NCBI RefSeq assembly: GCF_054482525.1
Contig: NZ_CM137006.1
Length of the DNA stretch: 64,000 nucleotides
Direction: 5' to 3' (one strand)
A program made the position numbers and the translations under genes. Below the pieces are notes generated by a model. The model was not told the origin of the DNA. It made no database searches and saw only the letters and a program-made list of their open reading frames with translations. Position 1 is the stretch's first letter, and every line of letters starts with the position of its first letter. This document shows positions 22,405-22,693 of this stretch, piece by piece.

Positions 22405-22693
22405 GCCAAACTGCTTTCAGTTATTGCGTGTGGCTACGCTTTCCATTCGGTAATTCCCTTTATGTTCCACAGCGATTTTTGAACTTTTTCTTCACCCGTA
22501 GACCGTCTCTTATATTTCATTTTATTGGGTCTGTTATGGTCCTTTCTGATTGTTATTCATGGGCTAATTAGCAGTCTGGTTGGCGATGCCCATCTCGGTG
22601 ATCCGTTTCCTGCACGACGCCTTGCGTCACTAGCCTCTTCTCTAGCTCATCATGCAGGTCTTTCTAATTGTGAAATCATCCTACGCTACTGCT

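Follow-up and report, generated by a model that had tools for sequence, protein, structure and literature searches.

The genes rluA and espY1 converge on a spacer of 406 bp, and the locus raises the question of what the larger part of that spacer, positions 22405-22690, once was and whether it now has any function. Here, the window means the whole stretch of DNA that was analysed (64,000 nucleotides from contig NZ_CM137006.1 of RefSeq assembly GCF_054482525.1), which is 100% identical to E. coli PCN033 across this region. A preliminary description had noted that the interval has no long ORF, is moderately AT-rich and lies between two hairpins, and all three points hold: the plus strand has three ORFs (38, 47 and 56 aa) and the minus strand none of at least 30 aa, G+C content is 44.4% against 52.8% for the whole window, and the flanking structures are a stem-loop at 22374-22395 and a palindrome with a 17-bp stem that abuts the stop codon of the minus-strand gene. 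The same description gave the interval no assignment; it allowed for what is left of a longer, decayed gene, for a 3' UTR or for a small RNA, and held that nothing in the sequence settles which. We find that the sequence does decide the matter, through its nucleotide-level likeness to intact ISEc13 copies, beginning at the terminal repeat: 22405-22690 is very probably the interior of a fossil ISEc13-type element and inert IS debris. A feature of this kind is already known and part of the relic is already annotated; what is added here is its true extent of 355 bp (against ~180 bp annotated), the IS origin of the hairpin on the rluA side, and the origin of the palindrome by inverted duplication. 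The coordinates of all features are collected in Table 1.

Table 1. Features of the rapA-lptD region, in window coordinates
Feature	Position	Strand	Basis or remark
rapA	18747-21653	+	
rluA, flanking core gene	21665-22324	+	ORF and RefSeq annotation of the identical locus
34-bp spacer	22325-22358		no IS origin; no likeness to the REP-like sequence of island-free strains
Relic of ISEc13-type left end, 355 bp	22359-22713	+	aligns to ISEc13 nt 1 to ~337
Degenerate left terminal inverted repeat, CTGCCTCTTGTACATAAAT	22359-22377	+	16/19 match to ISEc13 CTGTCTCTTATACACAAAT
Stem-loop AAATCCCCG-AATC-CGGGGATTT with T-rich tail	22374-22404	+	terminator-like scan hit
Relic of IS 5' UTR, which would have held the transposase promoter	22405-22534	+	aligns to the 1,564-bp variant without large gaps
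First ~58 transposase codons, Tn5-type N-terminal DNA-binding region	22535-22713	+	ATG aligned with the ISEc13 transposase start
Perfect palindrome abutting the espY1 stop, 17-bp stem and 6-nt loop	22691-22730		100% complementary inverted repeat
espY1 (the "effector-like gene")	22731-23507	-	ORF and RefSeq annotation
espY1 upstream region, remainder of the strain-variable segment	23508-23801		no IS-derived sequence
djlA	23802-24617	-	stop codon at 23802 is the right breakpoint
lptD	from 24872	+	

The spacer belongs to a segment that varies among strains. Of 5,426 complete E. coli genomes, 2,084 have the 406-bp spacer, each in a single copy and in every case together with espY1, whose product is a T3SS effector with pentapeptide repeats, or with yabPQ (in K-12, espY1 is split into the pseudogene yabP/yabQ). 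In the remaining complete genomes, about 3,350, the gap between rluA and djlA is filled by REP-like palindromes over 116-149 bp. Alleles with and without the segment part exactly at the rluA stop (22324, the left breakpoint, at which alignment to island-free genomes ends) and the djlA stop (23802), so that the whole 1,477-bp segment is strain-variable, including what had been called the rluA terminator. This arrangement suggests that the espY1 segment and the REP-like allele are swapped by recombination in the flanking genes. When ATCC 8739 and ST131 were compared with the window, no similarity and no REP/BIME likeness were found between the rluA and djlA stops. The segment is patchy even among related laboratory strains, being present in K-12 and absent from ATCC 8739 and NEBExpress.

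Several further observations were made on the segment as a whole. Within espY1, five tandem 15-nt units at 22847-22941 encode pentapeptide repeats, and across seven strains espY1/yabPQ measures between 732 and 837 nt, with a nucleotide diversity (π) of 0.061, about three times the value for the spacers on either side. The gene is bracketed by a perfect inverted repeat of 13 nt (AGCGATTTTTGAA at 22471-22483 and TTCAAAAATCGCT at 23565-23577), of which one copy lies in the relic of the IS 5' UTR and the other upstream of espY1; the similarity ends at 13 nt, and the chance expectation for such a repeat is, by a rough estimate, 0.02-0.05. Searching one genome per bacterial species with the palindrome core returned a sole match, on a contig binned as Collinsella, and the junction was not found outside E. 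coli in this search. The 1,646-bp contig (JAIJJM010000692.1, from a 'Collinsella sp.' MAG) carries rluA, the relic and espY1 at 96% identity to the window, and is an E. coli binning contaminant inside a species-representative genome.

The identity of the relic was established by comparison with intact elements. Pairwise alignment of 22359-22716 with nt 1-340 of the intact ISEc13 of pMAR2 (1,550 bp, with left end CTGTCTCTTATACACA, right end CTGTCTCTTGATCAGATCT and the transposase ATG at nt 166) gave 288 identical positions among 338 aligned (85%). Identity to a 1,564-bp plasmid variant is 88-90%, and this variant has a 12-nt segment, the hairpin loop and the T-rich tail in common with the relic. 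It is intact on plasmid pZ1323PEC0004-2 (CP148302.1), where it is flanked on both sides by the direct repeat CGTTCGAT, and plasmids of E. coli, Salmonella and E. fergusonii carry related copies. The annotation given to full-length plasmid relatives is 'IS4-like element ISEc13 family transposase'. The ISEc13 terminus CTGTCTCTTATACACA was set by three independent copies, whose flanks are unrelated up to the CTG, and aligns to window position 22359 (CTGCCTCTTGTACATAAATCCCC... against CTGTCTCTTATACACAAATCCCC...), where the left terminal repeat of the relic resembles the Tn5 outside end. The interval 22405-22690 lies wholly within the relic, running from the IS 5' UTR into the start of the transposase gene. 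Relic and ISEc13 are colinear through the left repeat, the hairpin, the 5' UTR with its 12-nt segment and ~58 codons; unlike ISEc13, the relic lacks the right repeat, the DDE domain and a target duplication, and has a nonsense codon and two frameshifts. Only the left ~22% of the element is left, the remaining ~1.2 kb, right inverted repeat included, having been deleted.

Part of this sequence already has an assignment. RefSeq/PGAP places a frameshifted, C-terminally truncated IS4/Tn5 transposase pseudogene at ~22536-22714, and in PCN033, K-12 and O157 the pseudogene is annotated as 'transposase DNA-binding-containing protein' (IS4/Tn5 family), its CDS flagged as frameshifted and as lacking the C-terminus. 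A test against refutation found that the similarity between the relic and ISEc13 is not confined to the 180 bp annotated by PGAP. In the literature, ISEc13 appears in inventories only, matches for yabP/yabQ are mostly to unrelated Bacillus genes, and among titles and abstracts concerning espY1 none looks relevant to the spacer.

By megablast, positions 22529-22716 match, at 95% identity, the beginning of a transposase pseudogene of the IS4 family that strain Z1323CEC0013 carries at another chromosomal site. An ORF of this copy matches the solved Tn5 transposase with E = 1e-31, and the right end of the copy is AGATCTGATCAAGAGACAG, the Tn5 inside end. A left end of the IS at ~22530, as this copy would place it, was rejected, since the copy lacks its 5' part and the terminus defined by intact copies falls at 22359. 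The likeness to IS50/Tn5 also extends to the ends of the 1,564-bp variant, CTGTCTCTTATACACAAGT and CTGTCTCTTGATCAGATCT, which are near-identical to the outside and inside ends of Tn5, in addition to the homology of the transposase to the solved Tn5 enzyme (E = 1e-31); ISEc13 is nevertheless distinct from IS50 at the DNA level, and the relic has no activity.

The suggestion that the interval is a decayed remnant of a formerly longer gene was thus correct in kind, but that gene is an ISEc13-type transposase and neither rluA nor the effector. The notion that a piece of a once longer espY1 or rluA decayed here draws on the pseudogene state of espY1 in K-12 (yabP/yabQ) and on its strain-dependent length, and it can practically be dismissed: ISEc13 similarity fully covers 22359 to ~22713, on the strand opposite to espY1, the rluA stop codon has the same position in strains with and without the island, and the alignments to ISEc13 in themselves refute the idea.

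The relic cannot transpose, because it has neither a right end nor a transposase. Compared with the intact gene, the transposase carries a GAG>TAG change at codon 12 (22568-22570), a +4 insertion at 22576-22579, a +1 insertion at 22666 and a truncation at ~22713, after about codon 58; the intact DDE transposase has 458 aa (pMAR2 and pZ1323PEC0004-2), and the relic falls short of an intact gene. The right end (..GATCAAGAGACAG) is absent anywhere between rluA and djlA, the espY1-djlA spacer has only chance matches of 8-10 nt to ISEc13, and 22325-22358 has no significant match to it. A target-site duplication was sought as an 8-9-bp direct repeat, as seen around the intact variant; the 9 bp to the left of the terminal repeat, TCCTAAGGG, have no second occurrence in 22325-23801, as is expected if the right end was deleted. 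A composite transposon was considered and rejected, there being no second IS end or target duplication beyond espY1.

Fragments of the N-terminal part of transposases are inhibitors in other IS families, and the 56-aa ORF (22525-22695) might likewise be a domesticated mini-protein that represses ISEc13 transposition by binding the IS ends. In 12 of 12 strains examined no stop interrupts its frame between ~22525 and the TAA, and the ORF has a weak similarity to Tnp_DNA_bind (Pfam PF14706; E = 0.016), whose 15.4 bits lie below the curated cut-off of 24. Beyond this sub-threshold match, Pfam found nothing in the three small ORFs, and phmmer found no match to the 56-aa ORF in the PDB; the homology to transposase accordingly rests on DNA similarity to the intact gene and not on the Pfam score. 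The TTG start exists only in this strain, the others having ACG or TCG, and has no Shine-Dalgarno-like sequence ahead of it; most substitutions alter the amino acid, and the true N-terminus is severed by the TAG and a frameshift. With these points against it, a mini-protein is extremely unlikely.

Diversity within the relic likewise points to inert IS debris. Among seven island-bearing strains, π is 0.020 for the spacer, compared with 0.033 and 0.028 at the third-codon positions of rluA and djlA and with 0.014 and 0.011 over the whole of these genes. Among 13 sequences (10 haplotypes), 27 of the 286 columns in 22405-22690 vary, where the spacer average would predict 21.8; the spacer varies most in 22396-22534, at 19 of 139 columns. 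Several strains have mutations in the TATATT box at ~22519, and a nearby GATC also varies. About 8 of 10 substitutions in the former coding part are non-synonymous. Conservation beyond neutral expectation, which the preliminary description had proposed to look for, was not found in 22405-22690, where diversity is near the third-codon level on a benchmark that is rough, being drawn from 7 to 13 strains with recombination ignored. The interior of the relic drifts at about the neutral rate and does nothing as a gene.

The two hairpins that bound the interval had been taken as independent landmarks, and neither is: the first is native to the same IS relic, and the left arm of the second is IS coding sequence. 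The stem-loop at 22374-22395 lies 50 nt after the rluA stop and has a predicted fold energy of -14.8 kcal/mol (z = -3.9), against -18.6 for its ISEc13 counterpart. The same hairpin is found just inside the terminal repeat in the intact ISEc13 and in the 1,564-bp variant, and is therefore a native feature of the IS. The tail that follows reads TTTGTTATTTC in the variant IS; of 13 E. coli relics, 12 have TTTTTTGTTTC at this place, and the window has TTTCTTGTTTC. The hairpin together with CTTGTTTCTG (TTTTTTGTTT in 12 of 13 strains) has the sequence attributes of an intrinsic terminator on the plus strand. That the T-rich tail was shaped at the rluA locus for better termination was largely rejected, as the closest intact variant already has TTTGTTATTTC. 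Judged by its sequence, this IS-native hairpin with its T-rich tail may well be what now ends rluA transcripts, with the chances about balanced.

Some stem-loops at the left ends of insertion sequences block transcription from outside and shield the transposase gene from it, as in the left-end terminator of IS200 and the protection of IS10 and IS50 against outside activation. The relic resembles them in having a GC-rich stem and a T-rich tail inside the repeat, facing transcription from rluA, and by position and shape the ISEc13 hairpin may be likened to them; in IS50 itself we know of no hairpin just inside the repeat.

The palindrome on the espY1 side joins IS sequence to a copy of itself. 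Its left arm (22691-22707) and loop are transposase coding sequence (GCTAAGGTTGAAGGGGC-GTTCCA, against GCTCAGGTTGAAGGTGC-GTACCG in ISEc13), and the similarity to the IS stops inside the loop. Over 17 nt the right arm (22714-22730) repeats the left arm in inverted orientation without a mismatch, and it runs into the espY1 stop; this inverted duplication at the end of the relic is absent from intact ISEc13 copies. Predicted fold energies are -36.8 kcal/mol on the plus strand and -34.5 on the minus strand. On the plus strand, where TTATTCT follows, the palindrome has the sequence attributes of an intrinsic terminator; on the minus strand, that of espY1, it has no U-tract and is therefore not a textbook intrinsic terminator for that gene.

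The palindrome has no variable columns among 13 sequences, against 3.1 expected (P about 0.05). A 56-nt probe covering it is identical in 2,014 of 2,071 genomes, and a control probe of the same length from the middle of the relic was recovered from no more than 1,450 genomes and matches identically in 1,106. One natural variant (strain Z1323CEC0014) has a C-T mismatch in the stem, which is thus not strictly invariant. The palindrome looks maintained, unlike the interior of the relic. It would block transcription from both sides and stabilise 3' ends where the rluA and espY1 transcripts converge, a role predicted from its structure that we consider about evenly poised between right and wrong.

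These hairpins bear on the view, also raised before, that the interval is a 3' UTR. That view stands for the first ~70 nt after rluA (the spacer, the IS repeat and the IS hairpin), which are almost certainly 3' UTR, but these lie upstream of 22405-22690. A functional long 3' UTR of rluA or espY1 with regulatory sequence in it would suit a spacer between converging genes and the highly conserved palindrome at the espY1 stop; the interval itself is situated beyond both hairpins as seen from either gene, is not conserved, and is missing from ~3,350 genomes that have REP-like repeats instead, which makes such a UTR quite unlikely.

A small RNA would be transcribed from the old transposase promoter region (TATATT at ~22519) as a product of ~190 nt, ended by the palindrome at 22691-22730 and TTATTCT. 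IS-derived small RNAs are known elsewhere, the plus strand has a strong hairpin with a partly T-rich tail, and the region would once have borne the IS transposase promoter. Neither RNA families nor promoters came to light, however: Rfam 15 has no match in 22325-22730 even at E ≤ 10, a scan of 21500-24000 at E ≤ 10 returned only chance matches to eukaryotic snoRNA and U6 outside the interval, and a promoter scan found no sigma-70-like site in 22405-22690. The TATATT and the GATC vary by strain, diversity of the interior is at or above the spacer average, and conservation does not exceed the synonymous-site level. In K-12, the curated Term-seq list has no 3' end for rluA, yabP or yabQ, a weak negative, for the terminator roles of the two hairpins as well as for a small RNA, as it holds only ~1,000 dominant ends, and the Rho-termination tables have no region within 59,280-59,686, likewise a weak negative for tables of prominent ends only (Adams et al., 2021; PMC7815308). 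Taken with these results, a small RNA in the interval is very unlikely.

The nearest Rho-termination region in the same study is K-12 58,260(-), listed as 'orphan' and antisense to yabPQ (Adams et al., 2021; PMC7815308). It maps to window ~23,721(+), beyond espY1 in the espY1(yabP)-djlA spacer, and suggests that there is some plus-strand transcription antisense across yabPQ. The source of this transcription could be leaky hairpins and read-through from rluA, the relic, or spurious promoters in the AT-rich island, or a start inside yabPQ.

The structure of the relic is best explained by an insertion followed by a deletion. An ISEc13-type element (IS4 family, IS50/Tn5 group, ~1.55 kb when intact) would once have stood downstream of espY1, its left end separated from the rluA stop by 34 bp, and a deletion would have taken everything beyond about IS nt 337. 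At the deletion joint, an inverted duplication of 17 nt from the end of the surviving IS sequence would have given rise to the palindrome that touches the espY1 stop, possibly by snap-back or template switching during the deletion. What remains is the left terminal repeat, the IS hairpin, the 5' UTR and ~58 broken transposase codons. We infer the order of these events, as no genome with an intact IS adjoining espY1, and hence no ancestral un-deleted state, was found among the genomes searched.

Other ISEc13 copies share sequence states with the relic. The 5'-truncated copy in Z1323CEC0013 (locus L003, 3001-3190, against window 22530-22716) also has the TAG, +4 and +1 lesions of the relic and is identical to the K-12 relic over ~150 nt, though the relic is ~10% diverged from active copies; a copy of this type has full-length matches in about 870 genomes. 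Conversely, the relic of strain Z1323CEC0014 (locus L022) has intact-IS states (no +1 insertion, and CCCAGTCCACTGCTCAGG) that extend halfway along the left arm of the palindrome, and this accounts for its C-T stem mismatch. This looks like gene conversion running both ways between the relic and ISEc13 copies elsewhere, live ones included. In the O157-lineage strain PNUSAE014970 (locus L009, 1343-2787), a further decayed ISEc13 copy is found immediately upstream of espL2, so that ISEc13 debris recurs beside T3SS effector genes; PGAP calls the N-terminal fragment of this copy a non-pseudo 'IS4/Tn5 family transposase DNA-binding protein'.

REP/BIME sequences offer a parallel for what the hairpins may do. 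In island-free strains they occupy the same rluA-djlA site and likewise form stable hairpins between converging genes, and by this analogy the hairpins of the relic may fill the role that REP elements probably have in those strains, with the same job of 3'-end protection or termination. The two differ in that they have no sequence similarity and in that the relic arose from an IS and an inverted duplication, not from a member of the REP family. A broader proposal, that the end signals of both rluA and espY1 were recruited from one dead IS, with the IS hairpin against read-through turned into the rluA terminator, the palindrome selectively maintained as a two-way barrier or 3' stabiliser for espY1, and two-way gene conversion with live ISEc13, is possible, though we hold it rather less likely than its alternatives taken together.

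The rluA-espY1 spacer in K-12, O157 and PCN033 is thus an IS relic about twice the length of the annotated pseudogene, and the apparent rluA terminator is IS-derived. By the presence of the relic, the espY1 segment can be recognised as DNA gained horizontally, which either arrived with an ISEc13-type element or was struck by one. The importance of the finding beyond tidy annotation is slight, and it argues against a hunt for a small RNA here. The locus would also be a small, clean case of IS debris supplying terminators and of a relic serving as a gene-conversion partner for a live IS.
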